A stretch of 64,000 nt of DNA, from the NCBI GenBank assembly GCA_031409275.1, contig JANNXA010000049.1:1-64000 (forward strand), given 5' to 3'. The position numbers and the translations under genes were made by a program. The stretch's first letter is position 1, and every line of letters starts with the position of its first letter. The DNA is from Planctomycetota bacterium (lineage in GTDB: Bacteria; Planctomycetota; B15-G4; SIAN01). Shown here piece after piece: positions 1,976-56,779 of this stretch. The notes under the pieces were generated by a model, which was given only the letters and a program-made list of their open reading frames with translations, was not told the DNA's origin and did not search any database.

Positions 1976-1989
1976 ATGCAAGATCGGGA

Positions 1990-6937: not shown

Positions 6938-6944
6938 GGGGCTA

Positions 6945-8555: not shown

Positions 8556-8567
8556 GGAGAAATTGGG

Positions 8568-8957: not shown

Positions 8958-8969
8958 GAGCGAGAACTC

Positions 8970-21637: not shown

Positions 21638-21841
21638 ATGGATGCGAAGGACAGCAAGGGACAAGGCGACGTCGAGGCGGGCAAGAGCGTGCCCGGCGGG
21701 CGCTTCGATGCGGCCCTGCCGATGGGCAAGCCGGGGGAGTCGGCGCAGGTGCGTCGCGATGCCGAGGGTGAACTCGACCTCGACGTCGGCGAGATCCAGA
21801 CCCGACTGCCGTACGGTTCGGAAGACATCGCGGACAAATGA
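21638..21841 (+). CDS. 67-aa candidate RiPP precursor peptide 2
   Basis: GGAG SD; ...GELDLDVGEIQTRLPYGSEDIADK; ATGA overlap with next gene. Confidence 0.6.
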   Translation: MDAKDSKGQGDVEAGKSVPGGRFDAALPMGKPGESAQVRRDAEGELDLDVGEIQTRLPYGSEDIADK

Positions 21842-23394: not shown

Positions 23395-23500
23395 CCGCCC
23401 CGCCGCGAGGCGGCGCGCTGGAACGAAGCCTCGTCGGCGCGTTCAATGGTGCGCCTCGAATCGACTCCGTCGTCCCGGTCCGTCCCCAAGGAGCTACCCG

Positions 23501-24148: not shown

Positions 24149-24299
24149 TCGTCGGCGCGATCGACGGCCACAGCGTCGCGAGCGGAAGGGAATTCCGCTC
24201 GCGACGGCGTTTGCATGGCGGCCGGGTCTGGCATCAAGCCCTGCGTCGGGCCGCACCGAAGAGGCCGCAGACCGCGCGGCGAAGCATGGGGGGACGCGA

Positions 24300-25193: not shown

Positions 25194-25198
25194 CGACG

Positions 25199-27662: not shown

Positions 27663-27670
27663 CCGCCGCC

Positions 27671-28864: not shown

Positions 28865-28865
28865 G

Positions 28866-29609: not shown

Positions 29610-29611
29610 CC

Positions 29612-30643: not shown

Positions 30644-30701
30644 AACTCGTCGCCCCTCTCGCGGGGCGATGCGGCTTTGCGGGCCTCCCGAAGGATCGTC
30701 C

Positions 30702-31847: not shown

Positions 31848-33172
31848 CGAGCGGAGCCGTGGTCGGCGCAGTCGATGCGAGCGTGACGGTCGCCGACGCG
31901 GCCCGCGCGCAGCGTTGTCGGCTGGAGCCGCGGCGTTACGTCGTGCTGCTGCTCGAGTTGGCGCTGCTACTGGCGGCGTTTCGCAGCTTCAAGCTACACG
32001 AGCTGATCGGCGAGACCTTCTTCGCCGTCAGCGCGATCGCCGCGGTCGCCTTCGCGCTGCACTACTGGCTGCCGTTGCGACTGAAGGAACCCGCCTTCAT
32101 CGCCATCTCGATCGGCGCGCTGCCTTTCCTGGTCGGGCCGACGGTGGCGCTGCTGCTGCTCGCCGTGGCGCTGGCGATCTTCGCGATCGGACGCGCCGAA
32201 GGCTCGAACGCGATGCGGGCGGGCGGGCTGCTCCTGATCGGCGCGGCGTGTGTCGCCGGCCGGGTCGGCGCGCTGCCGTGGCTGCCGGAGGAGTTGTGGC
32301 CGCTGCTCGGCTCGGTGTTCCTGTTCCGGTTGCCGATCTGGGCGTACGACCGCGCCCACCTGCGCGGGCGCCCGTCGCTGCGCGAGTACCTCACCTACTT
32401 CTTCATGCTCCCCAATTGGGGATGCCTGCTGTTCCCGGTCGTCGATTTCCAGACGCAGCGCAAGAGCTTCCTCGCGCGCGATCAGAACGAAGTGGCGCAG
32501 ACCGGCATCGCCTGGATGGCGCGCGGGCTGTTGCAGCTGGTGATCTACACCTGGCTCTACAACGCGCGGGAGTGGTTCCCGGATCCGCTCCTGATCGACG
32601 ATCCGCTGGCGCTGCTGCTGTGCCTGGCGCGCGTCTATCTGCTCTACCTGCGCCTTTCGGGGACGTTCCACTTCGTGATCGGGCTGATGCACCTGTTCGG
32701 CTACGACCTGCCCGAAACCCACCGTCGCTGGCTGCTCTCCTCGTCGCTCACCGACTTCTGGCGGAGGATCAACCTCTACTGGAAGGACTTCATGGTGAAG
32801 CTGGTGTGGTTCCCGGCCTACTTCCGCTGGCGCAAACAGGGGGAGCGGCGCGCGCAGCTCGCCGCGACGGCGCTGGTCTTCGTGGCGACCTGGTTCCTGC
32901 ACGCCGCGCAGACCTTCTTGGCGACCGGGACCTTCCTGTGGCGCGCCACCGATGCCGTCTTCTGGGCGATCCTCGGCGTGCTGGTGCTGGTGAACCTCGC
33001 CTTTGAGCTGCGGCCCGGGGCGGCCGCAAGAGCGGCGGCGCGCCCCGCGTGGTCGCGGGCGTTGCGAGTGGCGGCGACGCTGCTGCTCCTGATGGTGCTC
33101 TGGTCGATGTGGAACGCGCCGACCTTCGCCGAGTGGTTCGACCTGCTGACCTGGTGGAAGGTGGGTGGGTGA
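31844..33172 (+). CDS. MBOAT-family O-acyltransferase (DltB/AlgI-like)
   Basis: Multi-TM; LFGYDLPET, SLTDFWRRIN, conserved His in TWFLH; GTGA overlap with dehydrogenase. Confidence 0.85.
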   Translation: MTSGAVVGAVDASVTVADAARAQRCRLEPRRYVVLLLELALLLAAFRSFKLHELIGETFFAVSAIAAVAFALHYWLPLRLKEPAFIAISIGALPFLVGPTVALLLLAVALAIFAIGRAEGSNAMRAGGLLLIGAACVAGRVGALPWLPEELWPLLGSVFLFRLPIWAYDRAHLRGRPSLREYLTYFFMLPNWGCLLFPVVDFQTQRKSFLARDQNEVAQTGIAWMARGLLQLVIYTWLYNAREWFPDPLLIDDPLALLLCLARVYLLYLRLSGTFHFVIGLMHLFGYDLPETHRRWLLSSSLTDFWRRINLYWKDFMVKLVWFPAYFRWRKQGERRAQLAATALVFVATWFLHAAQTFLATGTFLWRATDAVFWAILGVLVLVNLAFELRPGAAARAAARPAWSRALRVAATLLLLMVLWSMWNAPTFAEWFDLLTWWKVGG

Positions 33173-33239
33173 ACCGTCGTCGCGACGCGTCGGCATCGCT
33201 CATTGCCGAGCGCCTTCGCAGGGAGCAGAATCGGCCGCC

Positions 33240-33491
33240 ATGGACGAGATCGCCAACGAACTTCGCCGCTTCCTTCTCGCCGAGTTCCTGCCCGGGGAGA
33301 GCGCGGCCAACCTGCGCGACGACACGCCGCTGCGGACGGGCGGCATCCTCGATTCGGTTTCGACCCTCAAGTTCGTGGCCTTCGTCGAGCAGCGCTTCGG
33401 CATCGAGATCGAAGCGCACGAGACTGGCGTCCGCGACTTCGACTGCATTGCCGACGTCGCCGCATTGGTACAGCGCAAGCGGGGGCGCTGA
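33240..33491 (+). CDS. acyl/peptidyl carrier protein
   Basis: 83 aa acidic, GGILDSV phosphopantetheine Ser, FVEQRFGIEI; GGGAG SD. Confidence 0.9.
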   Translation: MDEIANELRRFLLAEFLPGESAANLRDDTPLRTGGILDSVSTLKFVAFVEQRFGIEIEAHETGVRDFDCIADVAALVQRKRGR

Positions 33492-33495
33492 GGCG

Positions 33496-35121
33496 ATGGT
33501 GGCGAGCGGAGCCACCGCGCAGAGTCTCTGCGACCTGCTCGAAGCGTCGACGCGCCGCCACGGCGATCGGACCGCGCTGGTGTCGCCCGACGGCAGCGCG
33601 ACGAGCTACGCGCAACTCGAGCAGCACGCGAGCGCGATCGCGGCGTTCCTGCGCGAGAGCGGCGTGGAGCCGGGCGATCGCATCGGCTTGTGCCTGCCGA
33701 AAGGGGCGGCGAGCGTCGCGGTGCTCTGGGGCGCGATGAAGGCGCGTGCCGCCTACGTGCCCGTCGACTGGCAGGGACCGGCGGCCCGCAACGCGGCGAT
33801 CCAAAGGGACGCGGGGGTCCGTGTGCTCTTCCTCGGCGAAGCGCGCGCCGACGTGCTTCGCGAGTGGCCGCAAGCGACGGCGCTGCCGACGCTCGTGCGC
33901 GTGCCGATGGGACGGACGGGCGCCGCGGGTGCGTTCGCCGCGGTCGTCGCGCCGTTTCCGGCTGCCGCGATCGAGTGGAGCGCGGTGTTGCGCCACCCGC
34001 CGCTCGCGCCCGATGGAGCCGGCCCGCGCGGTCGCGAGCAGCTGGCCTACATCCTCTACACGTCCGGTTCGACCGGGGTGCCCAAGGGCGTCGCGCTCAC
34101 GCACGGCAACGCGCTCGCGTTCGTCGACTGGGCCAGCGAAGTGTTCGCGCCGACGCCGGACGACCGCTTCTCGAGCCACGCGCCGTTTCATTTCGACCTC
34201 TCCGTCTTCGACCTCTTCGTGGCGCTGAAGCACGGCGCGACGTTGGTGCTGATCGGCGAGGAGCTCGGCAAGGAACCGAAGGGGTTGGCGCGCTGCATCG
34301 CCGAGCAGAAGCTGACCTTCTGGTACTCGACCCCTTCGGCGTTGGCGCTGCTCGCGGAGTTCGGGCAGCTCGCGGCGCATGACCTTTCCGCGTTGCGCCA
34401 CGTCCTCTTCGCCGGCGAGGTCTTTCCGCTGCCGGCGCTGCGCCGCTTGACCGAGCAGTTGCCGCGGCCGGCGTTCTGGAACCTCTACGGGCCCACCGAG
34501 ACCAACGTCTGCACCTTCGCGCGCATCCCGCTGCCGATCGCGCCCGACCGTACGCGTCCGTTTCCGATCGGCCCACTTTGCGCGCATTGCGACGGGCTCG
34601 TCCTCGACGAGGCGCGGCGCGAAGTGGCGGTGGGTGGCGAGGGCCGGCTCCACATCGCCGGGCCGGCGCTCTTCGCGGGCTATTTCGGCCGTCCCGACCT
34701 CGATACGACGGTCTTCTTCGAGCGAGGAGGGCGGCGCTGGTACGACACCGGCGACGTCGTCCGCGAGGTCGCGGGCGAGGGGTTCCATTACCTCGGCCGG
34801 CGCGACCGCATGGTCAAGCGCCGCGGCTACCGCATCGAGCTCGGCGAGGTCGAGGCGGCGTTGCAGCGCCATCCCGAGCTGCGCGAGGCGGCGGTGGTGG
34901 CGCTGCCCGACGCGGCGTGCGGCGTGCGAATCGACGCCCATGTCGTGGCGGTCGCTGCGCCGCTGTCGTTGATCGCGCTGAAGCGTTTCTGTGCCGAGCA
35001 GCTGCCGGCGGCGATGAGCCCCGACCGTTTCGTCTTCCACCCGCAGCTCCCGCGCACTTCGACGGCGAAGGTCGACTACCCGGCACTCCTGCGCGTGTCT
35101 TCCGGCGGAGGCGCACCATGA
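33496..35121 (+). CDS. stand-alone adenylation domain, predicted L-proline:carrier protein ligase
   Basis: YTSGSTGVPKG, FDLSVF, NLYGPTETNVC, YDTGD, GYRIELGE, A10 Lys; manually read specificity code DLFYLALVCK. Confidence 0.88.
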   Translation: MVASGATAQSLCDLLEASTRRHGDRTALVSPDGSATSYAQLEQHASAIAAFLRESGVEPGDRIGLCLPKGAASVAVLWGAMKARAAYVPVDWQGPAARNAAIQRDAGVRVLFLGEARADVLREWPQATALPTLVRVPMGRTGAAGAFAAVVAPFPAAAIEWSAVLRHPPLAPDGAGPRGREQLAYILYTSGSTGVPKGVALTHGNALAFVDWASEVFAPTPDDRFSSHAPFHFDLSVFDLFVALKHGATLVLIGEELGKEPKGLARCIAEQKLTFWYSTPSALALLAEFGQLAAHDLSALRHVLFAGEVFPLPALRRLTEQLPRPAFWNLYGPTETNVCTFARIPLPIAPDRTRPFPIGPLCAHCDGLVLDEARREVAVGGEGRLHIAGPALFAGYFGRPDLDTTVFFERGGRRWYDTGDVVREVAGEGFHYLGRRDRMVKRRGYRIELGEVEAALQRHPELREAAVVALPDAACGVRIDAHVVAVAAPLSLIALKRFCAEQLPAAMSPDRFVFHPQLPRTSTAKVDYPALLRVSSGGGAP

Positions 35122-36260
35122 CGCCGTTCGCCCGCTCGGCCGCGGCGACGGTGGCGCTGCTGGTCGCGCTGCTCGCTCTCGAGCGCGCGCATCCCTCGGT
35201 CGCTCCGAGCTGGGTGCCGCGTTGGCTGCGGGCGCAGGTGCGCGAGTGCGTCTACCACGGCCTGAACGAAGAGGACGAGCTCGGCTTGCTGGCCGGCTAC
35301 TACACCGAACTGCTCGACGCGAGCCGCGAATCGACGCGAAGCGGCGACCTCGACGACGTCTGGGAGAGGGCGCTCCATCGTGGCGCGATCCACGAGCGGC
35401 TGGACTCCTTCCTGCTCTATCGACCCAAGCCGTCGACCGGCGATCCGGGCGACCCGTCGGCCGCGCATCTCACCAATCGCGCCGGACTGTTCGATCGCGA
35501 CTACCCCGACGCGCGCACCCCGGGAGTGCGGCGCCTGGTGTGGGTCGGCGATTCGCTCTCGCGAGGGCTCGGCGCGCCGTTCGGGAAGGGGCTCGAGCCA
35601 CGACTCGAAGCGTGGCTGAACGAGCCGCGCGGTGACGGGACGGGTGTCGAGGTGCTGAACCTCGCCGTCGAGGGCTATCGCCTCACGCAGTTCATCAAGG
35701 TCGTGGACGAGGCGCTGCCGCGCTGGCATCCCGACGTCGTGGTCGTCGGCCTCTCCGACCTCTCGGTGGCGCGGATCTGGGGACACCACCTCGCCTGCCT
35801 CGTCCATGACGGCATCGACCTCGAGTACCCCTACCTGCGCGAGCTTGTCGTCCGCGCGCGGCTAGAGCGCAACGACCCGCCGCGCGTTTCCGACGCGAAG
35901 CTGGCGCCCTTCCGCGTCGAGTTCATCCGTTTCGCGTTGACCACGATCCGCGCGAGCTGCGCGTCGGCGGGCGCGCAAGTGGTGATCGCGCTGCTCCCCG
36001 CCGTCGGCGAGAGCGATCGACTCGAAGCGCGATTCCTCGAGGCGCGCGCGATCGCGCTCGAGCTCGAGCTGCCGGTGATCGACCTCGTCGAGACCTTTGC
36101 GGGGGTCAGCGACCTCGCCGATTGGCGCGTCAGCGACATCGATCACCATCCGAACGAAGCGGGCTACGGGCGCCTGCTCGCGGCATTCCAGTCAGCGCTC
36201 CGGGCCGCGCCGGCCACCTACGAACTCTTCGCCGGCCGTCCGCTGCCGGCGGGGGACTGA
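35118..36260 (+). CDS. membrane-anchored SGNH hydrolase/acyltransferase (DltD/AlgJ-like)
   Basis: N-terminal TM, block I VGDS, block V DHHPN; ATGA overlap. Confidence 0.82.
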   Translation: MTPFARSAAATVALLVALLALERAHPSVAPSWVPRWLRAQVRECVYHGLNEEDELGLLAGYYTELLDASRESTRSGDLDDVWERALHRGAIHERLDSFLLYRPKPSTGDPGDPSAAHLTNRAGLFDRDYPDARTPGVRRLVWVGDSLSRGLGAPFGKGLEPRLEAWLNEPRGDGTGVEVLNLAVEGYRLTQFIKVVDEALPRWHPDVVVVGLSDLSVARIWGHHLACLVHDGIDLEYPYLRELVVRARLERNDPPRVSDAKLAPFRVEFIRFALTTIRASCASAGAQVVIALLPAVGESDRLEARFLEARAIALELELPVIDLVETFAGVSDLADWRVSDIDHHPNEAGYGRLLAAFQSALRAAPATYELFAGRPLPAGD

Positions 36261-36266
36261 GCGCGC

Positions 36267-37535
36267 GTGGTCGCACGCCTGCCGTCGTGGCGCGGACTGA
36301 CGGTGCTGCTTGGCGGCGAGGGCACGCAGCGCGGCCTGTCGTTCGTCGCGATCTGGTTGCTGACGCAGCGCATGACGCGCGAGCAGTACGCGCCGGTCGA
36401 GGTCGCGCTCGCCGCCTTGATGTTCGCCGCGCTCGTGGTCGAACTCGGCCTCCCGCTGCTGGGCGCGCGCGAGGTCGCGCGACAGCCGACGCACGCGCTG
36501 TCGCTCGTGCGTCCGGTCGTCGGGTTGCAACTGGTGACGGCGTTGGTGCTCGCGGGGCTCGCGTTCGTCGCGCGCGCAGCAGGCTGGATCGATGGAGTGC
36601 TTGCGCAGCTGCTGCCGGTCTACGCGCTCAGCCTGCTCTTGCTGCCGTGGCTCGTGCCGTGGCTCTTCCAGGGCCTTGGCGCGATGGCGTGGGTCGCGGC
36701 GCCCGGGGTCCTGCGCCAGGGGCTCTTCCTCGCGGGCGTCGCCGTCTGGGTGACCGATGGCGAGCGAATCGCCCGACTGCCGTGGATCGAAGTGGCCGCG
36801 GTTGGCGGCGCGGCAGCGCTTGCGCAGTTGGCATGGCGGAAGCGGACGGCGGCGCTGCGAGCGGTCGGCGCGATCGGCGCGATCGGCGAACCGCGGGCGC
36901 TGCCGTCGCGGTCGGCGCTGTTGCGTGAAGCGGCCCCCATGGGACTCTCGCAGTTCCTGTGGGCGCTGCGGATGTTCCTGGCGACGCTGCTGTTGTGGAA
37001 CCTTGTGGAACGGCCGGCGGTCGCCGATTACGGGGTCGCCCATCGGGTGATGATGATCCTGCAGGCCGTGATCACGATGTACTTCACGAATCTCTATCCG
37101 ACGCTCTCGCGCGCAGCGGTCGGGCCGCGTCCGGAGCTGGCGCGGTTGCTGGTTCGATCGCTGTCGATCGCGACCGGCGGCGCGCTGCTGCTCGCGGGCG
37201 GGATCGCGGTGGCGGCGCCGTGGCTGCTGCACACCCTCTTCCGGGCGGAGTTCGCCAACGCGCAGAGCATCCGTTGCCTGCGCCTGCTGATCTTCGTCAT
37301 TCCATTGCTGGCGCTGCGCGGCCACTTCCGAATGACGCTGCTGTCGATGGGCCGCGGGCGGCTCGAGCTGATGGTGTCGATCGGCGGGACGTTGCTGCTG
37401 GCGGCGCTGATCCCGTCGCTTGCGCGTGCGCAGGGGGCGAGCGGCGCGGCGCTCTCGCTGCTGATCGCGGAAGCGGCGGGGACGGCGGCGACGGCGATCG
37501 CGTTCTCGATGGCATGGCGGGAGCGGCGGGCATGA
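36267..37535 (+). CDS. Wzx-like oligosaccharide flippase
   Basis: Multi-TM MOP-superfamily pattern (ELGL...GAREVA, WLFQG, YGVAHR, YPTLSR). Confidence 0.85.
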   Translation: MVARLPSWRGLTVLLGGEGTQRGLSFVAIWLLTQRMTREQYAPVEVALAALMFAALVVELGLPLLGAREVARQPTHALSLVRPVVGLQLVTALVLAGLAFVARAAGWIDGVLAQLLPVYALSLLLLPWLVPWLFQGLGAMAWVAAPGVLRQGLFLAGVAVWVTDGERIARLPWIEVAAVGGAAALAQLAWRKRTAALRAVGAIGAIGEPRALPSRSALLREAAPMGLSQFLWALRMFLATLLLWNLVERPAVADYGVAHRVMMILQAVITMYFTNLYPTLSRAAVGPRPELARLLVRSLSIATGGALLLAGGIAVAAPWLLHTLFRAEFANAQSIRCLRLLIFVIPLLALRGHFRMTLLSMGRGRLELMVSIGGTLLLAALIPSLARAQGASGAALSLLIAEAAGTAATAIAFSMAWRERRA

Positions 37536-38506
37536 GCGACGGGCTGGTCTTCGTGCTCGGTGCGCCGCGCAGCGGAACGACGCTGTTGCGCGCGATGCTG
37601 AATCGCCACTCGCGCGTCGGGCTGTGCGACGAGACCTTCTTCTTCTACTGGGTCGCGCAGCGCGAGCGGGTCTTCGGTGACCTCGCCGACCCGCGCCGTC
37701 GCGCGCGGGCGATCGACCGCTTCGTCGCGACGCGTCGCATCGAGCGGCTGCGTCTCGATCGCGCGGCGCTGCAGGCGTGCCTGCAGGAGGAGGCGACGAG
37801 CTATCCGGCCTTCTTCGCGTCGCTGCTCCGTTTCTATGCGCGCGCGCAGGGCAAGACGATCGGCGGCGAGAAGACGCCGCAGCACGCCTTGCACGCGGCC
37901 ACGTTGCGGCGCTGGTATCCCGACGCGCGGCTGATCCACCTGATCCGTGATCCGCGCGACGTCGCCGCGTCGCTGAAACGGATGCCGTGGGGCAGCGGCA
38001 GCGCGCTCTCCGATGCCACGTTGTGGCGCGACTGCGTCGAAGGCGCCGAGGCGCTGGCAGGAGATCCGCGGTTCGCACGCGTTCGCTACGAGACCCTCGT
38101 GGAGCAGCCGCAGCCGGAGCTCGAGCGGCTCTGCGCCTTCCTCGGGCTTGCGTTCGAGCCGGGCATGCTGCAAGGCGAGGCGAAGAAGAGCGACCGCTGG
38201 TGGTTCGACCGCGCGCAGGGAGCGCTCGAGAAGTCGCGCGTCGAGCGTTGGCGCAGCGAACTCGACGCCGATGAGGTCGCGATCGTGGAGCGCGTCGCGG
38301 GGCACCACCTTGCGGCGCACGGCTACGTCGCGGCGCAGCCGCCGGCGACGCCGCCGCAGTGGCGCGCGGCGCAGTGGCAGGCGAAGGTCGCCGGACTCAA
38401 GCGTCGCTGGCGCCACCTCCCGGCCACTTTCTGGCGGCTCGTTCGGCCCGATCTCCTGGCGCGCGAGGAACGTGCGATCGACGGCCCTGGCGACCCGATC
38501 GAGTGA
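37532..38506 (+). CDS. PAPS-dependent sulfotransferase
   Basis: 5'-PSB GAPRSGTT, EKTP, 3'-PB RDPRDVAAS, RYETLV. Confidence 0.92.
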   Translation: MSDGLVFVLGAPRSGTTLLRAMLNRHSRVGLCDETFFFYWVAQRERVFGDLADPRRRARAIDRFVATRRIERLRLDRAALQACLQEEATSYPAFFASLLRFYARAQGKTIGGEKTPQHALHAATLRRWYPDARLIHLIRDPRDVAASLKRMPWGSGSALSDATLWRDCVEGAEALAGDPRFARVRYETLVEQPQPELERLCAFLGLAFEPGMLQGEAKKSDRWWFDRAQGALEKSRVERWRSELDADEVAIVERVAGHHLAAHGYVAAQPPATPPQWRAAQWQAKVAGLKRRWRHLPATFWRLVRPDLLAREERAIDGPGDPIE

Positions 38507-44655: not shown

Positions 44656-47118
44656 ATGAGGACTGCTCGTTGGATGGCGACCGCGTTGGTCGCGACGGCC
44701 ACGCTCACGACGGCTGCGCTGGCGATGTTGCCGCGCGCCAACGCGACGATCGCGAACGCTTCCCCGATCGGCGCGGCGGTCGCGACGTCACTGGTGGTCG
44801 CGCCGCCGACGGTGGCGTCGGATGCCGGCCCGCGGGTGGTCCTGCTGGGCTTCGACGGCGCCTCGCACCACCTCGCGGAACAGTTCATCGCCGAGGGGCG
44901 GATGCCGTGGGCGAAGAAGTTGATGGAGCAGGGCGCCTTCCTGCCGCTCGGTTCCGCCAACCCGTCCGAATCGCCGGTGGCGTGGGCGTCCGTCAACAGC
45001 GGCCAGAACCCGGGCAAGACCAACATCTTCGGTTTCATCCGCCGCACGTTCCGGTGGTCCGAGCTCACCGACGAGAAGGGGCAGCCGAAGCTCGTCGGCA
45101 GCGTGATCCCGACGATCGGCTACAGCCGCGGCGCCGACCTCGCGTTCCGCGACGGCTTCACCATGCCGTCGCATCAGAACGACTTGTCGGTGAAGAACTT
45201 CTGGGACCTGCTCGACGACGCCAAGCTCTCCTCGCGAGTGCTGCAGGCGGCGTGCAACTACCCGGCGACCGGCGGTCCGAACACCAAGCTGCTGGCAGGC
45301 CTCTCCGTGCCCGACGTGCGCGGCGGCCCCGGCACCTACCTCGTCTACACCAACAGCGAATGGGAGTTCAACCGCTCGACCGGCAACGGCGGGCAGGTGC
45401 TGAAGTACAAGGTCATCTGCCCGAAGTGCAAGAACAAGAGCTTCTCCTTCACCAAGGGCTGCGCGAAGTGCGCGGACGGCAACAAGGTCGGCTACTTCGA
45501 GACCAAGCTCTCGGGGCCGGAGAACTTCGTCGAAGCGCAGAAGTGGGCGCGCAAGATCGCCGAGCTGCAGAAGGCGTTCGATGCGGCGAAAGAAGGGGCG
45601 CCCGAGAAGCAGCAGCTGACCAAGGACCTGAACACGGCGAAGAATGACCGCAAGAAGTGGGAGGCGGACAAGGGCAACGCCTCGGTGCCGCTGTCCGGCC
45701 TCGTCGACAAGGCGGCCGGAACCATCAAGTTCACGCTGTCGGGCCAGGACGTCTTGCTGAAGGAGGGCGAGTGGTCGCCCTACATCCCGGTGACGTTCGA
45801 CGTCGAGGGTGCGTTCGCAGTGAAGGCGACGGCGCACCTGCACGTGTCGCAGTGCAATGCGACGGCAGAGGACGTGAAGTTCTATCTGCCGGCGATCACG
45901 GCGGCCGCCGACGCCACGCCGCCGAACATGCCGATCACCTCGCCGCGCGAGTTCGGGGCGGAGCTGGTGAAGGACGTCGGCTACTTCGACACGATCGGCT
46001 GGTCGTGCCAGACGCACGCGCTGAAGGATGACGAGATCGGCGACCTCTCGTTCATGTCGGCCATCTGGGACACGATCCAGTGGCGCCGCAAGATGCTGAT
46101 CGCGCAACTCGACAAGAATGACTGGCGGACGCTGTTCCAGGTCTTCGGCGAGACCGATCGCGTCTGCCACATGATGTACCGCTTCTTCGACCCCAAGCAC
46201 CCGCAGTACAAGGCCGAGGATGCCGCGAAGATGGTCCGCTTCGGTCCGCGCGAGATCGCGGCAAAGGACGCCATCCCGGCGATCTACGAGGAAGTCGACA
46301 AGACCATCGGCATCGTGATGGAGCGGCTCGAAGCGGGCAAGCTCGGCGACTGCACGCTGATGGTCTGCTCGGACCACGGGTTCAGCTCGTTCCGCGAGGA
46401 GGTCGAGCTCAACGCTTGGCTCGTCGACCAGGGCTTCATGACGCTGAAGACCGAGCCCGACGGCAAGCCGACCACCAACAAGTCGTTCCTCGGCTACGTC
46501 GACTGGGCGAAGACGAAGGCCTACTCCGTCGGCATCGGGACGATCTACCTGAACGTGAAGGGGCGCGAGCCCAATGGCAGCGTCGACCCGGCCGACTACG
46601 ACAAGGTCTGCGATGAGCTGATCGCGAAGATGCTGGCCTACCGCAATCCGAACAAGGAATCGCCCAACGATCCGCAGGTCTTCAAGGGCGCGTGGAAGCG
46701 CAGCGAGTACCTCGCGGGACCGTTTGCCACCGACCTGCGCGACGCCAAGGGGCGCTGCACGGAAGGGGCGGCCGACGTCCAGGTTGGTTTCAACGTCGGC
46801 TACCGCGTCGGCTGGGGCACGGCGATGGGCGACCGCAGCAAGGACGCCATCATCTTCCCGAACAAGAACCGCTGGTCGGGCGACCACACCTCGGTCCATC
46901 CGTACCTCGTGCGCGGGATCTTCTTCTGCAGCAAGAAGGTGGCGCCCGGTTCGGCTCCGCACCTGCAGGACCTCGCGCCGACGATCCTCGCCCTCCACGG
47001 CGTGCCGGTGCCGGCCGACATGGATGGCCACCTGATCGCGCTGCCGGGTCTCGAGGAGTTGGCGAAGAAGCACGTCGGCGGCAGCGCCAATCGCGAGTCG
47101 CTGATTCCGCCGAACTGA
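44656..47118 (+). CDS. exported AlkP/nucleotide pyrophosphatase-superfamily protein with CxxC..CxxC insert
   Basis: Signal peptide; LLGFDG, PSESPVAW, DRVCH, SDHG, WSGDH; insert CPKC...CAKC. Confidence 0.85.
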   Translation: MRTARWMATALVATATLTTAALAMLPRANATIANASPIGAAVATSLVVAPPTVASDAGPRVVLLGFDGASHHLAEQFIAEGRMPWAKKLMEQGAFLPLGSANPSESPVAWASVNSGQNPGKTNIFGFIRRTFRWSELTDEKGQPKLVGSVIPTIGYSRGADLAFRDGFTMPSHQNDLSVKNFWDLLDDAKLSSRVLQAACNYPATGGPNTKLLAGLSVPDVRGGPGTYLVYTNSEWEFNRSTGNGGQVLKYKVICPKCKNKSFSFTKGCAKCADGNKVGYFETKLSGPENFVEAQKWARKIAELQKAFDAAKEGAPEKQQLTKDLNTAKNDRKKWEADKGNASVPLSGLVDKAAGTIKFTLSGQDVLLKEGEWSPYIPVTFDVEGAFAVKATAHLHVSQCNATAEDVKFYLPAITAAADATPPNMPITSPREFGAELVKDVGYFDTIGWSCQTHALKDDEIGDLSFMSAIWDTIQWRRKMLIAQLDKNDWRTLFQVFGETDRVCHMMYRFFDPKHPQYKAEDAAKMVRFGPREIAAKDAIPAIYEEVDKTIGIVMERLEAGKLGDCTLMVCSDHGFSSFREEVELNAWLVDQGFMTLKTEPDGKPTTNKSFLGYVDWAKTKAYSVGIGTIYLNVKGREPNGSVDPADYDKVCDELIAKMLAYRNPNKESPNDPQVFKGAWKRSEYLAGPFATDLRDAKGRCTEGAADVQVGFNVGYRVGWGTAMGDRSKDAIIFPNKNRWSGDHTSVHPYLVRGIFFCSKKVAPGSAPHLQDLAPTILALHGVPVPADMDGHLIALPGLEELAKKHVGGSANRESLIPPN

Positions 47119-47249
47119 AGGCGCGTCGCGCGACGAAGCCCATGAATGCAGCGCGGGCGGCTCGGGAGATCCCGGGCCGCCCGCGTCGTTTCCGTTCGAG
47201 TCATCGCCGGCCATCGCCGGTCGGTGGCGTCACGCGTTCGTGCGCGCGA

Positions 47250-47831
47250 TCACTGCTGCGCGCCCGTCTCCTCCTCGTCCTCGCCTTCAGCGCCGAGATA
47301 GCCGAGCGCCTTCAGCTGGTCGAGCGCGCCCGAGTCGCCCGCCTCCATGAACTTCTGCTCGCAGAACTTCGCGACGCGCTTCAGCTTTTTCATCACGACC
47401 GCGTCGGTCCCGAACTTCTTCTTCGCCACCTCGAGCAGGTCCAGCGCAACCTTCGGGTGATCGCTCTCCGCGAGGCCGATCCCGAGCGAGGCGTACTGCT
47501 CCGCCGTCAGCACCGCGGTCGACGCGGCCATCTGTTGCACCGCCGCCTTGCCGGCGTCGTCACCGTTGCCGCGCGCGGACGCGGTGATCTTGTCGCTCCA
47601 CGCCTGCGCCTTCTCTTCGGCGGTCGCCTTGGAGTCGGCAAGCGCCGCGTCGAGCGCCACAAGGGCCGCCTTCCACTCCTCCTTGGCGGCGGCGCTAGTC
47701 GCGTCGTCGAGGAGTTCGCTTGCGCTCTTGCCGGAGGTTGGCGCTCCACCGGAGTCGGTCGGCTTCTGGTCGCCGCATGCCGCGACGAGTGAGAGAGCGA
47801 TCAGGGCGGTGAGCAGGTGCGTGGGGCGCAT
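47250..47831 (-). CDS. helical lipoprotein with LKALGYL motif near the C-terminus
   Basis: Lipobox LVAAC; alpha-helical body; ...ALDQLKALGYLGAEGEDEEE. Confidence 0.75.
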   Translation of the reverse strand: MRPTHLLTALIALSLVAACGDQKPTDSGGAPTSGKSASELLDDATSAAAKEEWKAALVALDAALADSKATAEEKAQAWSDKITASARGNGDDAGKAAVQQMAASTAVLTAEQYASLGIGLAESDHPKVALDLLEVAKKKFGTDAVVMKKLKRVAKFCEQKFMEAGDSGALDQLKALGYLGAEGEDEEETGAQQ

Positions 47832-48116
47832 GAATTCAAAGTGCTCCGTAGCGGAAGTAGGGGGGGCGAGAGCGTAGCGGCGAAAGTGTCTTTGGCCGCG
47901 GAGGCCGCCGTGCTGCTTGGACGGCGGTCGCCCGCTCGCGTCGATGGTCGGCGCGGGACCCTACCTCGCCTCCGCGCCGCCGGCACCGCCTTGACGAGCC
48001 GCAAAGCGAAGGTATCTATTCCGCCTCCAATGAGAGTGCGATCGGAGTGCGATTGGAGTGCGACCGCTTCGGAGGCGGGCGCTGCCGTTGCCCGATCTCG
48101 CCGTCTTGAGGGCCCG

Positions 48117-48362
48117 ATGCGCGAAAGCAAGGTGACGGTCAAGATCCCGCGGCCGCTCTACCGCAAGATCCAGCTCGTCATCGAGAACTCCGGCTTCTCG
48201 TCGCCAACCGATTTTGTCGTCTTCGTGCTCCGCGATCTCCTCGGCGAGGCCGAGCGCAAGAGTGCCGAGCCGACGGCGGCCGCAGCTGCGACCGCGGACG
48301 ACTTTTCCGCGCACGACCTCGAGGCAGTGAAGCACAAGCTGAAGAACCTGGGATACCTGTGA
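48117..48362 (+). CDS. CopG/ribbon-helix-helix small protein ending LKNLGYL
   Basis: VTVKIPRPLYRKI...SGFSSPTDFVVFVLR RHH pattern. Confidence 0.8.
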   Translation: MRESKVTVKIPRPLYRKIQLVIENSGFSSPTDFVVFVLRDLLGEAERKSAEPTAAAAATADDFSAHDLEAVKHKLKNLGYL

Positions 48363-48416
48363 CGCGCCGGTCGGCCGCGGCTTCGCAGCCGCCGGCGCGC
48401 GCGCGTTCTTGAACCG

Positions 48417-48458
48417 CGTTTCTGACACCGTTTCTGAAGACACCGTTTCTGAAGACAC
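48417..48458 (+). repeat. direct repeats CGTTTCTGA(AGA)CAC x3 upstream of sat
   Basis: 48417-48428 (12 bp), 48429-48443 and 48444-48458 (identical 15-mers), abutting the SD. Confidence 0.75.
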
Positions 48459-48469
48459 AGAGGAATTCG

Positions 48470-49624
48470 ATGATCGCTCCGCATGGTGGACGGCTGGTGA
48501 ACCGGATGGTCGAGGGCGGCGAGCGCGATCGCCTGCTCGCTTCGGCTCCGAAGCTCCCGAAGGTGGTCCTGAACGCGCGCGAGATGGCCGACGTCGACAT
48601 GATCGCCGTCGGTGCCATGAGCCCGCTGCAGGGCTTCATGGGCAAGGCGGACTACGACGCCGTGCTCGCGACGCGCCGACTGAACAACGGCCTGCCGTGG
48701 ACGATCCCGATCGTGCTCGCCGTCAAGCCCGGCACGAGCGCCGAGGCGTACAAGGAGGGCAGCGATGTCGCCCTCGAGACGACCGACGGGCAGCTGCTCG
48801 CCATCCTCCACCTCGACTCGAAGTGGAAGATGGACAAGGGTGACGAGGCGCGGAAGGTGCTGCGCACGGACGACAAGGCGCACCCTGGCGTCGGCTACCT
48901 CGAGTCGATCGGCGACACCTACCTCGGCGGCACGCTGTCGGTGGTCAACCGCCTGAAGTACGACAAGTACAACAACCGCCGCCTCGACCCGGTCGAGACG
49001 CGGACGCTCTTCAAGAGCAAGGGCTGGAACACGATCGTCGCGTTCCAGACGCGCAACCCGATCCATCGCGCGCACGAGTACCTCACCAAGGTCGCGCTCG
49101 AAGTCGTCGACGGCCTGATGCTCCACCCGCTGATGGGCGAGACCAAGAGCGACGACGTCCCGGCCGACGTGCGCATGAAGTGCTACGAAGCGCTCCTCGC
49201 CGGCTACTACCCGAAGGAGCGCACGGCGCTCGCCGTCTATCCGCAGGCGATGCGCTACGGCGGGCCAAGCGAGGCCGTTCTCCACGCGATCTGCCGCAAG
49301 AACTACGGCTGCACCCACTTCATCGTCGGTCGCGACCACGCCGGCGTCGGCAGCTACTACGGCAGCTACGACGCGCAGAAGATCTTCGAGGAGTACGCCC
49401 CCGGCGAAGTCGGGATCAACCTCCTCAAGTTCGAGAACTCGTTCTGGTGCAAGCGCACCAACGGCATGGCCTCGACCAAGTCGAGCCCGGCCACGCCGGA
49501 AGAGCGCATCAACCTCTCGGGCACGCAGGTGCGCGAGATGCTGCGCGCCGGCACCATCCCGCCGGTCGAGTTCACGCGCCCGGAGATCGCGAAGATCCTG
49601 ATCGACGCGCTCAAGGCGACCTGA
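48470..49624 (+). CDS. sat: sulfate adenylyltransferase (ATP sulfurylase)
   Basis: IAPHGGRL, SPLQGFM, AFQTRNPIHRAHEY, HFIVGRDHAGVG, LSGT.VR. Confidence 0.97.
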   Translation: MIAPHGGRLVNRMVEGGERDRLLASAPKLPKVVLNAREMADVDMIAVGAMSPLQGFMGKADYDAVLATRRLNNGLPWTIPIVLAVKPGTSAEAYKEGSDVALETTDGQLLAILHLDSKWKMDKGDEARKVLRTDDKAHPGVGYLESIGDTYLGGTLSVVNRLKYDKYNNRRLDPVETRTLFKSKGWNTIVAFQTRNPIHRAHEYLTKVALEVVDGLMLHPLMGETKSDDVPADVRMKCYEALLAGYYPKERTALAVYPQAMRYGGPSEAVLHAICRKNYGCTHFIVGRDHAGVGSYYGSYDAQKIFEEYAPGEVGINLLKFENSFWCKRTNGMASTKSSPATPEERINLSGTQVREMLRAGTIPPVEFTRPEIAKILIDALKAT

Positions 49625-49684
49625 TCGCGCGTCCGCCGCGATTCCTCCCTAACTCCCCCAAAGACTCAAGGAAACGGACGACCC

Positions 49685-50284
49685 ATGGAAGGTTTCACGC
49701 TCTGGTTCACCGGGCTCTCGGGCTCGGGCAAGTCGACGCTCGCGGAACGGATCAAGAACGAGCTGATCGAGCGCGGCATGAAGGTCGAGCTGCTCGACGG
49801 CGACGAGTTCCGCACGACGCTCAGCAAGGGGCTCGGCTTCAGCAAGGAAGACCGCGACACCAACATCCGCCGCATCGGTTACGTGGCGAAGCTGCTGTCG
49901 CGCAACGGCGTCGTGGCGATCACCGCCGCGATCTCGCCCTATCGCGATACGCGCAACGAGCAGCGCCAGAAGATCGGGCGCTTCTTCGAGGTCTACACCG
50001 AATGCGATCTCGACACCCTCGAGGCGCGCGACGTGAAGGGGCTCTACAAGAAGGCGCGCGCCGGCCAGATCAAGAACTTCACCGGCGTCGATGACCCGTA
50101 CGAGCCGCCGACCAGCCCCGAGGTCCACTGCAACACGGCGAAGGAGGAGCAGGACGCCTGCTTCGACCGCATCCTCACCGCGCTCGAAGCGCGCGGCTGG
50201 GTGGCGAAGCCCGCCGGCGATGGCATCGACCAGGCGACCGAGGCCGCTGCGATGCGCTCGCTCAAGGCGAAGGGTTTCATCTGA
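49685..50284 (+). CDS. cysC: adenylyl-sulfate kinase
   Basis: [45 protein letters not shown]. Confidence 0.97.
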
Positions 50285-50356
50285 CGATTGCCGGCACCTC
50301 CGGCGTGGACGGCACGACGGCAACTCCGTCCAAGTCGTCACGTCGGAGGTGCAGCG

Positions 50357-50620
50357 ATGGCGGATCTCTTCAGCGTCCTGGCCTACATCGGGCCGGGAAT
50401 CGGTCATTCCTCCCCGTGGTCGACCTGGCTCGACCAGGCGTGCGTCAGTGTCGTGATGACGATCGTGGTCGGCGCGCTCCTCGGCCTTGCCGGCGCGCTG
50501 CCTGGGGCGCTTTGGATCGGCTGGTATTCCGCGCGCATGGCGCCGCGGCGGTTCGCACGCCGGGTCACGCTTCGGATCGGGTCGACTTTTCCCGACGCGC
50601 TGGCCGATCACCCGCGTTGA
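50357..50620 (+). CDS. small membrane protein with N-terminal YIGPG motif
   Basis: GGAGG SD; MADLFSVLAYIGPG...TM...basic tail. Confidence 0.6.
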   Translation: MADLFSVLAYIGPGIGHSSPWSTWLDQACVSVVMTIVVGALLGLAGALPGALWIGWYSARMAPRRFARRVTLRIGSTFPDALADHPR

Positions 50621-50731
50621 GGAAGGCTTGCCTCGCACCACGATGGCGCCTCAAGCTCGGGGGCTATACCTGTCGTACCTTTCGCGATCGAAGCGGCGGC
50701 CCGCGCGCCGCCGTCATGGTTTGAGGTCTGC

Positions 50732-52920
<2,189 letters not shown>

Positions 52921-52924
<4 letters not shown>

Positions 52925-54957
52925 GCCGAAAGGACGCCTCCGTGACCTTGCAGAGCCACCGTTTCCCGATCGCCGCGCTGCTGCTCGGCGCGCTTGCGCT
53001 CGCGGCGCCCTCCTGTAGCCGCTCCTACGGCGTCAGCGGCAAGAAGCTCGTCGTGCTCGGCATCGACGGCATGGACCCGAACCTGCTGCGCGAGTACATG
53101 GACGCCGGCCTGCTGCCGAACTTCAAGGAGTTGGCCGACTCCGGCACCTTCCTGCCGCTTGGCACCAGCAACCCGCCGCAGTCGCCGGTCGCGTGGTCGA
53201 ACTTCATCACCGGGATGGATCCTGGCGGCCACGGCGTCTACGACTTCCTCCATCGCGATCCGCAGACCTACCTGCCCGTGAGTTCGACGCAGATCACCGA
53301 AGGCGAACCGACGACGTTCTCGCTGCCGGGCGACTATCAGCTCGAGCTGCCAGCCGACAGCCGCCCGGTTCGTCAGGGTGCCGCGTTCTGGGACCTGCTC
53401 GGCGAGGCGGGGATTCGCTGCGACGTCTATCGCATGCCCGCCGCCTATCCGATCCAGGCCAGCGATCAGCTGACGCTCTCCGACATGGGGACGCCCGACC
53501 TGCAAGGCGGCATCGACGGGATGTACGCCTACTACACCAGCGACGTCCCGGACAACTTCGACAAGGTGCACGGCGGGATCTGGAAGCAGGTGAAGCTGCA
53601 GAAGGGGCGCGCTGACGCGAAGCTCTACGGACCGCCGAGCCCCTTCAAGACGCCGCCCGAGGGCAAGCACGAGGTCGCGAAGTCGGAGCAGCCGTTCACG
53701 ATCTTCGTCGACCCGACCGAAGAGGTCGTCCACATCGCGATCGAGGGTGGCGACGCCTGCGTGCTCGAGAAGGGGCAGTGGAGCGACTGGCTGCGCTGCT
53801 CGTTCGACCTCGGCCTGAAGCAGTCGATGGGCGGCATGGTGAAGTTCTACGTGCAGCAGGTGCGCCCGAACCTGCGCCTCTACTGCTCGCCGGTGAACAT
53901 CGACCCGCGTGCGCCGTGCATGCCGATCTCGACGCCCGACGACGCCGCCGTGATCGACCTCGCCGCCTCGATCGGCCCGTTCTACACGCAGGGTCTTGCC
54001 GAGGAGACCAAGGCGCTGCAGGAAGGGACGATCGACGACCGCGAGTTCATCGAGCAGTGCAACGACATCCATCACGAGCGCATGCGCATGCTCGACCACG
54101 CGCTCGCGCATTTCGACGACGGGCTGCTCTTCTTCTATTTCTCCACCGTCGACCTGCGCAGTCACATGATGTGGCGCCACATCGCGGCCGGTCACCCGGC
54201 GCGCGACGAGAAGATCGCGGCGCAGTACGCCCGCTCGATCGAGGATTCCTACGTCCTCATGGACCAGGCGCTCGGTCACCTGCGCGAGAAGATCGGCGAG
54301 GCGACGCCGCTGATGGTCCTCTCCGACCACGGCTTCTCGCCCTTCACGCGCCGCGTCAACTTGAACAACTGGCTGCTGAAGGAGGGCTACCTCGTCCTCA
54401 CCGAGAAGGCGGCGCAGGACCCGAAGGGGGTCTACTCGCTCGCCGAGGGCGGCGGTGTCGACCGCTCGAAGTCGCGCGCCTATGCGGTCGGATTCAACGG
54501 CATCTACCTGAACCAGAAGGGGCGCGAGAAAGAGGGCGTTGTCGAACCGGCCGCGCGCGACGCGCTGCTGGCCGAGATCCGCGGCAAGCTGCTCGCGCTG
54601 CGCGACGAGTCGAAGGGTGGCGCCAAGGTGGTCTTCCGCGCCGATCTGCGCGACGAGATCTACCACGGTGATCAGCTCGACCACGCACCCGACCTCGTCG
54701 TCGGCTACGACCGCGGATTTGGCGCTTCCGACACCACGGCGCTTGGCCAGGTGCAGCCGCGCGACGCCTTCGTCGAGGACAACAAGGACCTCTGGAGCGG
54801 CAACCACTTGATGGCGCCCGATGTGGTGCCGGGCATCTTCCTCACCAACCGCAAGATCGATCCGAAGGACCCCTGCCTGTACGACCTCACGGTGACGATG
54901 CTCGCCTACTTCGGCGTCAGCAAACCCGCCGTGATGCGCGGCAAGAGCCTGTTCTGA
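52921..54957 (+). CDS. AlkP/NPP-superfamily protein, predicted exported/lipoprotein
   Basis: Hydrophobic leader ending APSC; GIDGMD, PPQSPVAW, DLRSH, SDHG, WSGNH; ATGA overlap. Confidence 0.88.
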
Positions 54958-55053
54958 ATCGAGCCGGATCGCCGCGCTCGCGACTCGTGACCTGAACCAA
55001 CCACGACCCAACGACCCGCGCCTGCGCTGCAGGCGCTTCCGACGGAGCAACCC

Positions 55054-55254
55054 ATGTTCGGTGGCAACAAGGTCAAGCTCGAGAAGGATGTCTTCGAGAA
55101 GCTGAAGAAGTTCGCGGCCGCGGCCGGCTACAGCTCGCTCGACGAGTTCGTGAACCACATCCTCGAGCGCGAGCTGCAGTCGATGGACACTGGCGGCAGC
55201 GAGGACCCCGAGGCGATGCGCGAGAAGCTGCGCGGCCTCGGCTACATCTCCTGA
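55054..55254 (+). CDS. RHH-like small protein ending LRGLGYIS
   Basis: GGAG SD; KVKLEKDVFEKL...AGYSSLDEFVNHILERE, similar to 48117-48362. Confidence 0.8.
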   Translation: MFGGNKVKLEKDVFEKLKKFAAAAGYSSLDEFVNHILERELQSMDTGGSEDPEAMREKLRGLGYIS

Positions 55255-55346
55255 TCGCAGCCACCACGACGAACGCATGAGGCGCCCGCCGCCTGCCCCC
55301 GACTCCGGGGTGCGGGACGGCGCGGCGTGCGGAGCACGGAGCGAAG

Positions 55347-56192
55347 ATGGATGCGGTGAATCGCGCGATGAAGTCGACGTTCGACGTCCTGTGGACGCCG
55401 TTCGCTTCGGCCCCGTTGTGGGTCGGAGTGCTGGTGCTTGGCGTCGCCTTCGGCGTCCTCGCGCTGATCGCGATGAAGTACACGACCAATCCCAAGCGCG
55501 TCAGCCACTACAAGGACCGCTACCAGGGGCACATCCTCGCCATCAAGCTGTTCCGCGACAGCTTCTCGGTGGTGATCAGTTCGCTCGGGCGGACGCTGGC
55601 CTGGGTCGGCGCCTACCTCACCGAGCAGTTCAAGCCGATGCTGGTGATGCTCATCCCGTTCATGCTGCTCTTCGCGCAGATGCAGATGCGGCTTGGCTAT
55701 CGGCCGCTCGACGTCGGTGCGCCGGTGCTGTTGACGGTCGACCTCGCTCCCGGCCAGTCGGTCGAGGCGATGGCGCTGTCGCTGCAGATGCCGGAAGGTC
55801 TCGAGTCACGCACGAAGATGGTGCGCGAGCCCGGCGAGAACCGCGTCGTGATGTCGATCGCCGCGAAGTCCGCCGGCGCCCACGTGCTCAAGCTGACCTG
55901 CGCGGGCGAGACGGTCGAGAAGACGATCCACGCGGGCGCGCTCGCGGGCGCGCCGATGGTCTTCCCGGTGCGCTCGAACGACTTCGTCGACCAGCTGCTC
56001 TATCCGGGGGAGGACTCCTTCGGCGCGACCTCGCACTTCCGCCGCATCTCGCTCGCCTATCCGGTGCGCCCGATCGACTGCTTCGGCTTCGACTTGAGCT
56101 TCGGCAGCGAGATCGGCATGGCGATGACGTTCGTCCTCATCACGATCGTCGCGGCCTTCGGGTTGAAGGGCGTCTTCGGCGTCACCATCTGA
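55347..56192 (+). CDS. DUF106/EMC3/TMCO1 (Oxa1-superfamily)-like membrane protein with beta-rich soluble domain
   Basis: Amphipathic helix, TM1, helical loop, FKPMLVMLIPFMLLF TM, beta domain, C-terminal TM ending KGVFGVTI. Confidence 0.6.
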   Translation: MDAVNRAMKSTFDVLWTPFASAPLWVGVLVLGVAFGVLALIAMKYTTNPKRVSHYKDRYQGHILAIKLFRDSFSVVISSLGRTLAWVGAYLTEQFKPMLVMLIPFMLLFAQMQMRLGYRPLDVGAPVLLTVDLAPGQSVEAMALSLQMPEGLESRTKMVREPGENRVVMSIAAKSAGAHVLKLTCAGETVEKTIHAGALAGAPMVFPVRSNDFVDQLLYPGEDSFGATSHFRRISLAYPVRPIDCFGFDLSFGSEIGMAMTFVLITIVAAFGLKGVFGVTI

Positions 56193-56215: not shown

Positions 56216-56779
56216 ATGCCCCGTTCCGAGCAGAGCTACGACCCGCAGGTCGAACGCGCGATCGCCCTGGCGCTGCGCGCGCATGCGGGGCAGGAGCGCA
56301 AGGGGCAGGTCGGCGTTCCCTACGTCGTCCACCCGCTGCACGTCGGGATGCTCCTGGCACGCCACGGCTTCGAACCCGAGGTGGTGGCGGCGGGCATCCT
56401 CCACGACGTGGTGGAGGACTGCGACATCGGGCTTCCCGAGCTCGCGCTGCGTTTCACGCCGCGGGTCGTCGCGCTGGTGGCCGAGGTGAGCGAGTCGAAA
56501 GAGAAGAGCTGGGAGCAGAGGAAGCAGCACACGATCGACGCGATCCCCGGAATGAGCGATGGGGCGCGCGCCGTGACGGCGGCCGACAAGGTGCACAACC
56601 TCGCCGACCTCGAGCGACTGCTCGGCGAGCGCGGCGAAGAGGTGTGGAAGCTCTTCCGGCGCGGGCGCGGCCCGACGCTCGACTACTACGAGCGGGTCCA
56701 CGCGCAGCTGGCTCGCCACTTCGCCCACGCGCTCACCGACGAGCTTCGGCTGCGCTTCGACGCCGTCGCGCAGCGCTGA
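56216..56779 (+). CDS. HD-domain small alarmone hydrolase-like (Mesh1/SAH)
   Basis: AH.GQ.RK, PYVVHP, LHDVVED, ADKVHN. Confidence 0.88.
   Translation: MPRSEQSYDPQVERAIALALRAHAGQERKGQVGVPYVVHPLHVGMLLARHGFEPEVVAAGILHDVVEDCDIGLPELALRFTPRVVALVAEVSESKEKSWEQRKQHTIDAIPGMSDGARAVTAADKVHNLADLERLLGERGEEVWKLFRRGRGPTLDYYERVHAQLARHFAHALTDELRLRFDAVAQR

Follow-up and report, generated by a model that had tools for sequence, protein, structure and literature searches.

The window examined here is a 64,000-nucleotide stretch of a Planctomycetota genome (contig C49 of G000; 5.6 Mb, 92.9% complete). It holds a gene cassette in which the sulfate-activation genes sat and cysC, whose products would by family membership make 3'-phosphoadenosine 5'-phosphosulfate (PAPS), precede two paralogous proteins of the alkaline phosphatase (AlkP) superfamily, here called A2 and A3, and a membrane protein of the DUF106/Oxa1 family. 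The cassette may relay sulfate across the membrane on a tyrosine. Its genes and immediate surroundings are as follows.

48117..48362, + strand: RHH1, a ribbon-helix-helix (RHH)-like protein with an LGY tail, opening the sat-cysC run (RHH_8 E 0.003, below the cut-off)
48470..49624, + strand: Sat, ATP sulfurylase (above the NCBIfam cut-off; single copy found in the genome)
49685..50284, + strand: CysC, adenosine 5'-phosphosulfate (APS) kinase (above the NCBIfam cut-off; single copy found in the genome)
50357..50620, + strand: free microprotein with a YIGPG motif and a transmembrane segment, lineage-specific and divergent
50732..52924, + strand: A2, with signal peptide, YIGPG, transmembrane segment, basic linker and an AlkP domain predicted to be cytoplasmic
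52921..54957, + strand: A3, exported AlkP paralogue and predicted lipoprotein, with Ser88
55054..55254, + strand: RHH2, a core gene of 66 residues with a conserved LxGLGYI[SEG] tail
55347..56192, + strand: DUF106/Oxa1-superfamily protein with three transmembrane segments, a cytosolic helical hairpin and an immunoglobulin (Ig)-like insert
56216..56779, + strand: HD-domain protein (HD_4, RelA/SpoT-like hydrolase), directly after DUF106
44656..47118, + strand: A1, exported AlkP/PF01663 paralogue of 820 residues with a Cys-containing insertion
47250..47831, - strand: predicted TPR-like lipoprotein with an LKALGYL tail, recurring opposite RHH1/sat
37532..38506, + strand: canonical sulfotransferase ending a polysaccharide cluster, outside the cassette and an ordinary PAPS consumer

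RHH1, sat, cysC, the YIGPG open reading frame (ORF), A2, A3, RHH2, DUF106 and the HD-domain gene form a single run on the + strand, and the start of A3 overlaps the stop of A2 by 4 bp. A preliminary description of this DNA had the genes from sat to DUF106 co-directional and in these places, which is what we find. The third AlkP paralogue that it counted is present at 44656 but lies outside the sat-cysC run, from which the opposite-strand lipoprotein gene (47250-47831) separates it as its own transcription unit. The same description had not included the YIGPG motif within A2, the second RHH-LGY gene (48117-48362), the additional LGY-like tail of CysC, which lacks the Tyr (LKAKGFI), or the sulfotransferase at 37532-38506. 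Across 49 cassette loci the conserved core is A2, A3, RHH2 (at 42 loci) and DUF106, with A1 and the free YIGPG peptide peripheral. A1 was accordingly rejected as a core relay member (3/49 loci), as was the free YIGPG ORF (50357-50620) as a conserved gene (one of 30 relatives, at 47% identity). RHH1 occurs at 8 of the 49 loci, and counterparts of the lipoprotein gene (47250-47831) were found by tblastn at 5.

The N terminus of A2 carries the tyrosine around which our interpretation is built (Tyr28, codon 50813-50815; the nucleophile is Ser126). Among 55 A2-type ORFs chosen by score margin over A3, five N-terminally truncated sequences were dropped and 50 kept; all 50 contain Y[IVA]GPG, followed by a transmembrane segment, an invariant Pro and 5 to 12 basic (K/R) residues, and in 49 the Tyr sits 54 to 55 residues ahead of the catalytic core. 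Directly ahead of the Tyr, 47/50 have A, G or S, which fits signal-peptidase cleavage that would leave Tyr as residue +1. In 119 A3 homologues the Tyr motif was found in none, and 110 have export signals (N terminus lipobox-like in 81, Sec-like in 26 and Tat-like in 3; 9 were unscorable or short). From these calls, made by regular expressions with hydropathy and motif heuristics, the A2 catalytic domain is predicted to lie inside and that of A3 outside, an opposition that appears conserved. In a FastTree phylogeny built from the catalytic domain alone (138 sequences; root placed on two short signal-less forms), 49 A2 proteins are a single clade (support 1.0), the A3 clade has 37 members (support 0.947), and A1 clusters with two A1-like genes that neighbor other cassettes (support 0.999).

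All three paralogues match PF01663 (88, 117 and 114 bits for the genes starting at 44656, 50732 and 52921, against a gathering cut-off of 23), and each keeps the GxDG Asp, the SPVAW Ser, DxxxH, SDHG and WSG[DN]H, bearing out the earlier remark that metal ligands and SPVAW serine are retained. The three Asp and three His metal ligands and the nucleophile are invariant in 50 A2 and 141 A3 sequences and present in A1. The best Foldseek matches of the A3 model (predicted local distance difference test score [pLDDT] 94.6) are nucleotide pyrophosphatase/phosphodiesterases (NPP/ENPP; Xanthomonas NPP 2gsn/7mw8 and ENPP1; E 3e-11), at about 12% identity and a TM-score of about 0.35 over the query; A3 as a single sequence had no match in the PDB, and a profile search did match NPP. 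The SPVAW Ser aligns with NPP Thr90. In NPP, Thr90-Phe91 and Asn111 are the diester and nucleotide-pocket residues; A2 and A3 have Ser-Pro for Thr90-Phe91 and, in a weak alignment, an invariant Phe at Asn111. Formylglycine sulfatases are distinct as well, since the motif is SPVAW and not [CS]xPxR, the ligands are those of a two-metal site and PF00884 scores below its cut-off. In place of the R, W and D of all A2 and most A3 proteins, the window A3 and about 24 of 141 homologues have G601, D604 and N628, which appear to be a co-varying second-shell change.

The cassette is associated with sulfate activation well beyond this genome. In a survey of 201 Planctomycetota genomes, A2 was matched at E 1e-40 in 80, of which 24 had the identity of at least 45% that defines an orthologue here; DUF106 was found in the same 24. 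APS kinase is encoded by all 24 cassette genomes against 98 of the 177 others, and cysC lies within about 10 kb of the cassette in 16 of the 24, from 8 families. Among 79 loci in GTDB contigs, 32 have an A2-type gene or an A2-A3 pair, under labels that include Acidobacteriota, Aminicenantes, Desulfobacterales and Eiseniibacteriota; APS kinase was found in 30 of these 32 genomes and in 9 of 18 single-enzyme genomes chosen from the remaining 47 loci. The linkage recurs in Acidobacteriota too, in differing orientations, and in variants from Elusimicrobiota and Victivallales (L080, L102) genes like cysD/cysN, which encode an ATP sulfurylase non-homologous to Sat, directly precede a YIDP[GS] module and an AlkP gene. 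Nine loci recorded as "uncultured Eubacteriales" (L032, L048, L054, L055, L060, L062, L074, L091 and L095) have the same neighbor gene families as the Aminicenantes loci L037 and L039, and their titles may be wrong.

Three further genes recur at the 49 loci: a short canonical sulfotransferase (10), a short signal-less AlkP protein (16) and a 310-residue sulfatase-fold protein (6). They never co-occur, against 6.5 overlaps expected by shuffling, a contrast that kinship among the loci inflates, and they may fill one cytoplasmic PAPS-using slot. The 310-residue type is present in the window's genome on another contig (C4:13441-14388, - strand); this gene is an orthologue (60-66%) of one found in six related cassettes immediately ahead of cysC and, in those that have sat, following it.

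The 92.9%-complete genome yielded neither a PAPS reductase nor a sulfite reductase (positive controls matched in 14/14 and 11/14 genomes), so PAPS here most likely serves sulfation, and without cysH and sulfite reductase the cassette is not an assimilatory sulfate reduction operon. Ordinary consumers of PAPS exist, namely five PF13469 sulfotransferases, one of them about 10 kb upstream of the cassette at the end of the polysaccharide cluster.

The assignment of the DUF106 protein to the Oxa1 fold is a prediction that draws mainly on a profile hit to MJ0480 (5c8j; E 4e-8, with a filamin-like insert), alongside PF01956 at E 7e-4. Its model (pLDDT 94; helices 24-46, 49-68, 73-117 and 255-273) has a three-transmembrane core and a cytosolic hairpin, with the Ig-like insert between the second and third transmembrane segments predicted to be periplasmic; K56, Y90 and Q111 are conserved polar residues. 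A VIA search with the model gave a full-span match to 7tut_8 (139 aligned residues, root-mean-square deviation 4.5, and a Z of 7.8 that is within noise for helical proteins), a chain that we take to be TMCO1. Foldseek returned weak Ig matches only, and the Atlas hypothetical clusters only. A three-transmembrane core with a cytosolic hairpin characterizes the Oxa1 superfamily, the members of which act as insertases for simple membrane proteins whose translocated segments are small (PMC5868721). An ordinary YidC is encoded elsewhere in the genome.

The tyrosine arm is an autonomous module that occurs both free and fused. Free microproteins with a signal, YI[GD]PG and a transmembrane segment stand ahead of single exported AlkP genes at L057 (where an ORF weakly resembles DUF106; probability 47, E 2e-4), L063, L080, L087 and L108, and YIDP[GS] followed by two transmembrane segments is fused to AlkP at L027, L028, L030 and L102. 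Most of these AlkP proteins group with A3 on the tree, an indication that the motif moves together with the exported enzyme. A scan of metagenomes for AYIDPGTG matched 119 stretches, and the 80 fetched comprise 67 free microproteins, 9 fusions and 4 chance matches. Their neighbors include membrane sulfatase-fold proteins (18 plus 5), TagF-like proteins (11), A2/A3-like proteins (3) and, as the commonest partner, a protein of about 470 residues (45/80; e.g., L160:2451-3899, - strand) that often precedes a membrane sulfatase-fold gene. Its C-terminal half weakly matches S-adenosylmethionine (SAM) methyltransferases including WbdD (E 0.002); for its N-terminal half the Atlas gave nothing at ≥0.9, and "kinase-like" is a motif reading. 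With the microprotein, it is a candidate methylphosphate relay.

Fusions of the module include, besides exported AlkP, an aryl-sulfate sulfotransferase (ASST) preceded by signal, AYIDPGTG and two transmembrane segments (L224:248-1741, - strand; E 7e-19) and TagF-like proteins (PF04464). In TagF-like homologues retrieved with the catalytic region alone (residues 60-420; close relatives, at least 62% identity), YIDPG is present in 119 of 120, mostly at residue 4 and with no signal peptide. A YidC domain is encoded beside such fusions at L205:26-2755 (+) and L216:989-3738 (+), that of L205 being fused to a transmembrane segment and weak sulfatase-fold regions; L180 and L151 gave partial hits, and the two remaining loci, L187 and L223, are short. 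Loci related to L205 and L216 contain genes for cytidine triphosphate (CTP) transferases and phosphoenolpyruvate (PEP) mutase. These YidC and TagF-like loci seem to mirror A2, DUF106 and A3 with different proteins. A search for TagF-like fusions in the phylum of G201 found none in 151 genomes, without a positive control, and plasmid searches gave no matches.

We propose that the invariant N-terminal Tyr of A2 serves the cassette as the carrier on which sulfate passes from cytoplasm to periplasm, a reading to which we give not quite an even chance. PAPS is cytoplasmic. Ser126 of A2 would first receive the sulfate, whose donor could be PAPS itself or a small carrier charged by an accessory enzyme, and Tyr28 would receive it next. 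DUF106 could supply an Oxa1-type hydrophilic groove in which the Gly/Pro-rich Tyr arm reaches both sides of the membrane. Lipoprotein A3 might then accept the sulfate on Ser88 and give it to envelope acceptors; periplasmic ASSTs or Thr-type sulfatase-fold proteins are possible alternative recipients. That the cargo is sulfate is favored by the module-ASST fusion and by ASSTs inside cassettes, because ASSTs, as periplasmic enzymes, take aromatic sulfates as donors and tyrosine peptides as acceptors; the natural roles of most of them are described as unknown (PMC13426309). ASSTs are encoded in 10 of the 24 cassette genomes against 10 of the 177 others, and inside 3 of the 49 loci. The preliminary description had already put forward a sulfate relay, and its expectations that homologues be linked to sat/cysC and that the domains lie on opposite sides of the membrane are borne out, the latter by prediction. 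The relay itself is retained for A2 and A3 rather than for three paralogues, A1 having its own clade and few loci; the notion that PAPS has no other consumer fails on the five sulfotransferases. The membrane carrier missing from that earlier idea is likely the Tyr module.

Several points weigh against this proposal. Sulfate as cargo is the weakest step of the mechanism, and an NPP would attack the phosphorus of APS or PAPS. Tyr28 and Ser126 of A2 are predicted on opposite membrane faces, and the topologies come from hydropathy and motif heuristics. The six-ligand two-metal Ser site matches that of NPP and alkaline phosphatase, which prefer phosphate esters (PMC3693508). The parallel YIDPG systems, with their TagF-like proteins, CTP transferases and PEP mutase, appear to move phospho groups, and the five ordinary sulfotransferases explain sat-cysC by themselves. 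No ASST was found in the window's genome. Only 8 of the 32 GTDB-contig cassette loci include sat or cysC, two of those 32 genomes gave no APS kinase, and the Planctomycetota counts are among kin and not independent.

The same relay could instead carry a phospho cargo, A2 and A3 being NPP-like enzymes that split phosphosulfate and pass adenosine monophosphate (AMP), 3'-phosphoadenosine 5'-phosphate (PAP) or another phospho-monoester via Ser and Tyr, or that merely hydrolyze PAP or APS for the sulfotransferases. The NPP-type metal site and the best fold matches to Xanthomonas NPP and ENPP1 speak for this, as do the TagF-like, CTP-transferase and WbdD-like methyltransferase genes paired with YIDPG systems; the AlkP-fold transferases LtaS, EptA and PIG-O also move phospho groups. 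Yet the alignment gives A2 and A3 an invariant Pro after the nucleophile and an invariant Phe at the NPP Asn111 position, plain PAP recycling needs no exported paralogue, DUF106 or Tyr arm, and the module is fused to an ASST while ASST and sulfotransferase genes lie inside cassettes, and we consider a phospho cargo rather unlikely. An unlikely reading, too, is that of a trans-membrane sulfation complex whose Tyr motif does no more than dock the protein or set its topology, with DUF106 as a dedicated insertase or scaffold and a lipid or small phenolic compound carrying sulfate across. It draws on the insertion by Oxa1-superfamily members of simple membrane proteins whose translocated segments are small (PMC5868721), on the 10 of 50 A2 proteins whose hydrophobic signal before the motif falls under the cut-off, some through truncation, and on the CysC tail, whose tolerance of Phe implies that a short tag may have a structural role in this cluster. 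Against it, the genome already has an ordinary YidC, the Tyr is unchanged in all 50 A2 proteins and YIDPG nearly so in the TagF-like proteins, and the free microproteins of 67/80 loci, with their own signal peptide and no enzyme, keep a Tyr that a pure topogenic signal would not need.

The proteins might, finally, be plain hydrolases (phosphodiesterases or arylsulfatases) for nutrient scavenging, placed near sat-cysC by lineage history. The AlkP fold is very abundant (70 PF01663 matches in this genome), exported relatives that stand alone are found in genomes with no APS kinase (9/18), and many cassette loci have neither sat nor cysC. Linkage in 8 Planctomycetota families and in Acidobacteriota, in varied orientations, with cysD/cysN-like genes in other phyla, and an invariant Tyr arm and DUF106 that hydrolases have no need of, make this improbable.

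The genome also encodes many sulfatase-like proteins. By blastp there are 54 such ORFs on many contigs (e.g., C51, C37 and C55), and 25 of them carry an LGY tail at the C terminus. A motif pattern picks out 35, with Thr as the nucleophile in 33 and Ser in the other 2; the Thr type has a T-x-P-[SAT] motif, and none of the 35 has the formylglycine Arg. With a DNA pattern for the Thr type, the median number of matches is 18 for the 24 cassette genomes and 1 for the 177 others; each of the 15 genomes that reach at least 15 matches has the cassette, and in family f2 the genomes with the cassette have 17 and 30 matches and those lacking it 6, 8 and 10. As few as 1 to 4 matches occur in four cassette genomes, so the link is not obligate, and a strict requirement for Thr-type expansion was rejected. 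The LGY tag is borne by cytoplasmic and exported proteins alike: four unrelated window proteins (47250-47831, 48117-48362, 49685-50284 and 55054-55254) end in an acidic helix and L-x-x-L-G-Y, with a Phe variant in CysC.

Elsewhere in the window, an envelope and polysaccharide cluster (about 21838-38506) lies upstream of the cassette and co-directional with it, with genes for PMT_2, GT1, GT2, deacetylase, GDSL, flippase and sulfotransferase proteins. Positions 1-10000 form an island of low guanine-plus-cytosine content (52-60% against about 70%) that encodes SIR2-like, AAA ATPase and integrase proteins and is likely a mobile or defense element. ORFs resembling the HD protein (56216-56779) also come after DUF106 in G004, G071 and G174. 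A promoter and terminator scan was uninformative (no promoters; 11 terminator-like sites against 7.3 expected).

A broader and more doubtful reading is that the Y-x-[DG]-P-G arm is a general tyrosine carrier, for which Oxa1/YidC folds were recruited at least twice as conduits, with interchangeable loaders and exported AlkP- or sulfatase-fold transferases. The conduits, archaeal-type DUF106 here and YidC-type in the TagF-like systems, would swing the loaded Tyr across the membrane, and the cytoplasmic loaders could be AlkP proteins with PAPS, TagF-like proteins with cytidine diphosphate (CDP) donors, or the putative kinase-methyltransferase. If so, dozens of Thr-type "sulfatases" and orphan ASSTs would be relay-fed envelope sulfotransferases. 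The sulfate relay, if true, would itself be a new way of sulfating the cell envelope and provide a donor for periplasmic ASSTs. It would give a function to a widespread unannotated microprotein family and a non-insertase role to an Oxa1-fold protein, and many annotated "sulfatases" may build, not remove, sulfate esters.

Known systems resemble parts of the cassette. The DUF106 protein shares a three-transmembrane core and a cytosolic helical hairpin with archaeal Ylp1/MJ0480 (DUF106), TMCO1 and EMC3 (PMC5868721). It differs from them in being bacterial, in its Ig-like insert between the second and third transmembrane segments, in its tie to A2 in 24/24 genomes and in its coexistence with YidC. 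The AlkP proteins share with NPP (Xanthomonas NPP and ENPP1; PF01663; "predicted AlkP superfamily phosphohydrolase/phosphomutase" in JGI annotation) six metal ligands and a hydroxyl nucleophile at the Thr90 position, and are set apart by large beta-rich insertions, Ser-Pro for Thr-Phe and an inside/outside paralogue pair. NodPQ-NodH and RaxPQ-RaxST are PAPS-supplied sulfation modules. They, too, have dedicated PAPS synthesis without assimilation genes, but they sulfate in the cytoplasm, and this operon has no canonical sulfotransferase. Within the literature searched (titles and abstract beginnings, with most subscription papers and supplements outside coverage), there was no description of the cassette or the Tyr motif, of a trans-membrane sulfate relay, or of a route for sulfating periplasmic or surface molecules from PAPS.

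The closest parallel in logic is with DltB-DltX-DltD and PatA-PatB, tyrosine acyl shuttles of the MBOAT-SGNH type in which DltX and PatA are the tyrosine shuttles (PMC12148441). The likeness lies in a cytoplasmic donor, an exported enzyme with a Ser intermediate, an envelope acceptor, and an invariant Tyr borne by a membrane peptide that is either a separate microprotein or part of a fusion (PMC12148441). There is no homology: the cassette Tyr is N-terminal in Y-x-[GD]-P-G and that of Dlt/Pat C-terminal in FXYXXF, the enzymes are of the AlkP fold, the membrane part is of the Oxa1 fold, and the proposed cargo is sulfate. Neither MBOAT nor SGNH Pfam matches nor the FXYXXF motif were found among the cassette genes, which leaves Dlt/Pat as an analogy only. 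The cassette is apparently undescribed and belongs to none of the described systems tested here; it appears to work like the Dlt/Pat shuttles, and its relay logic suggests that of DltB-DltX-DltD built from unrelated parts.

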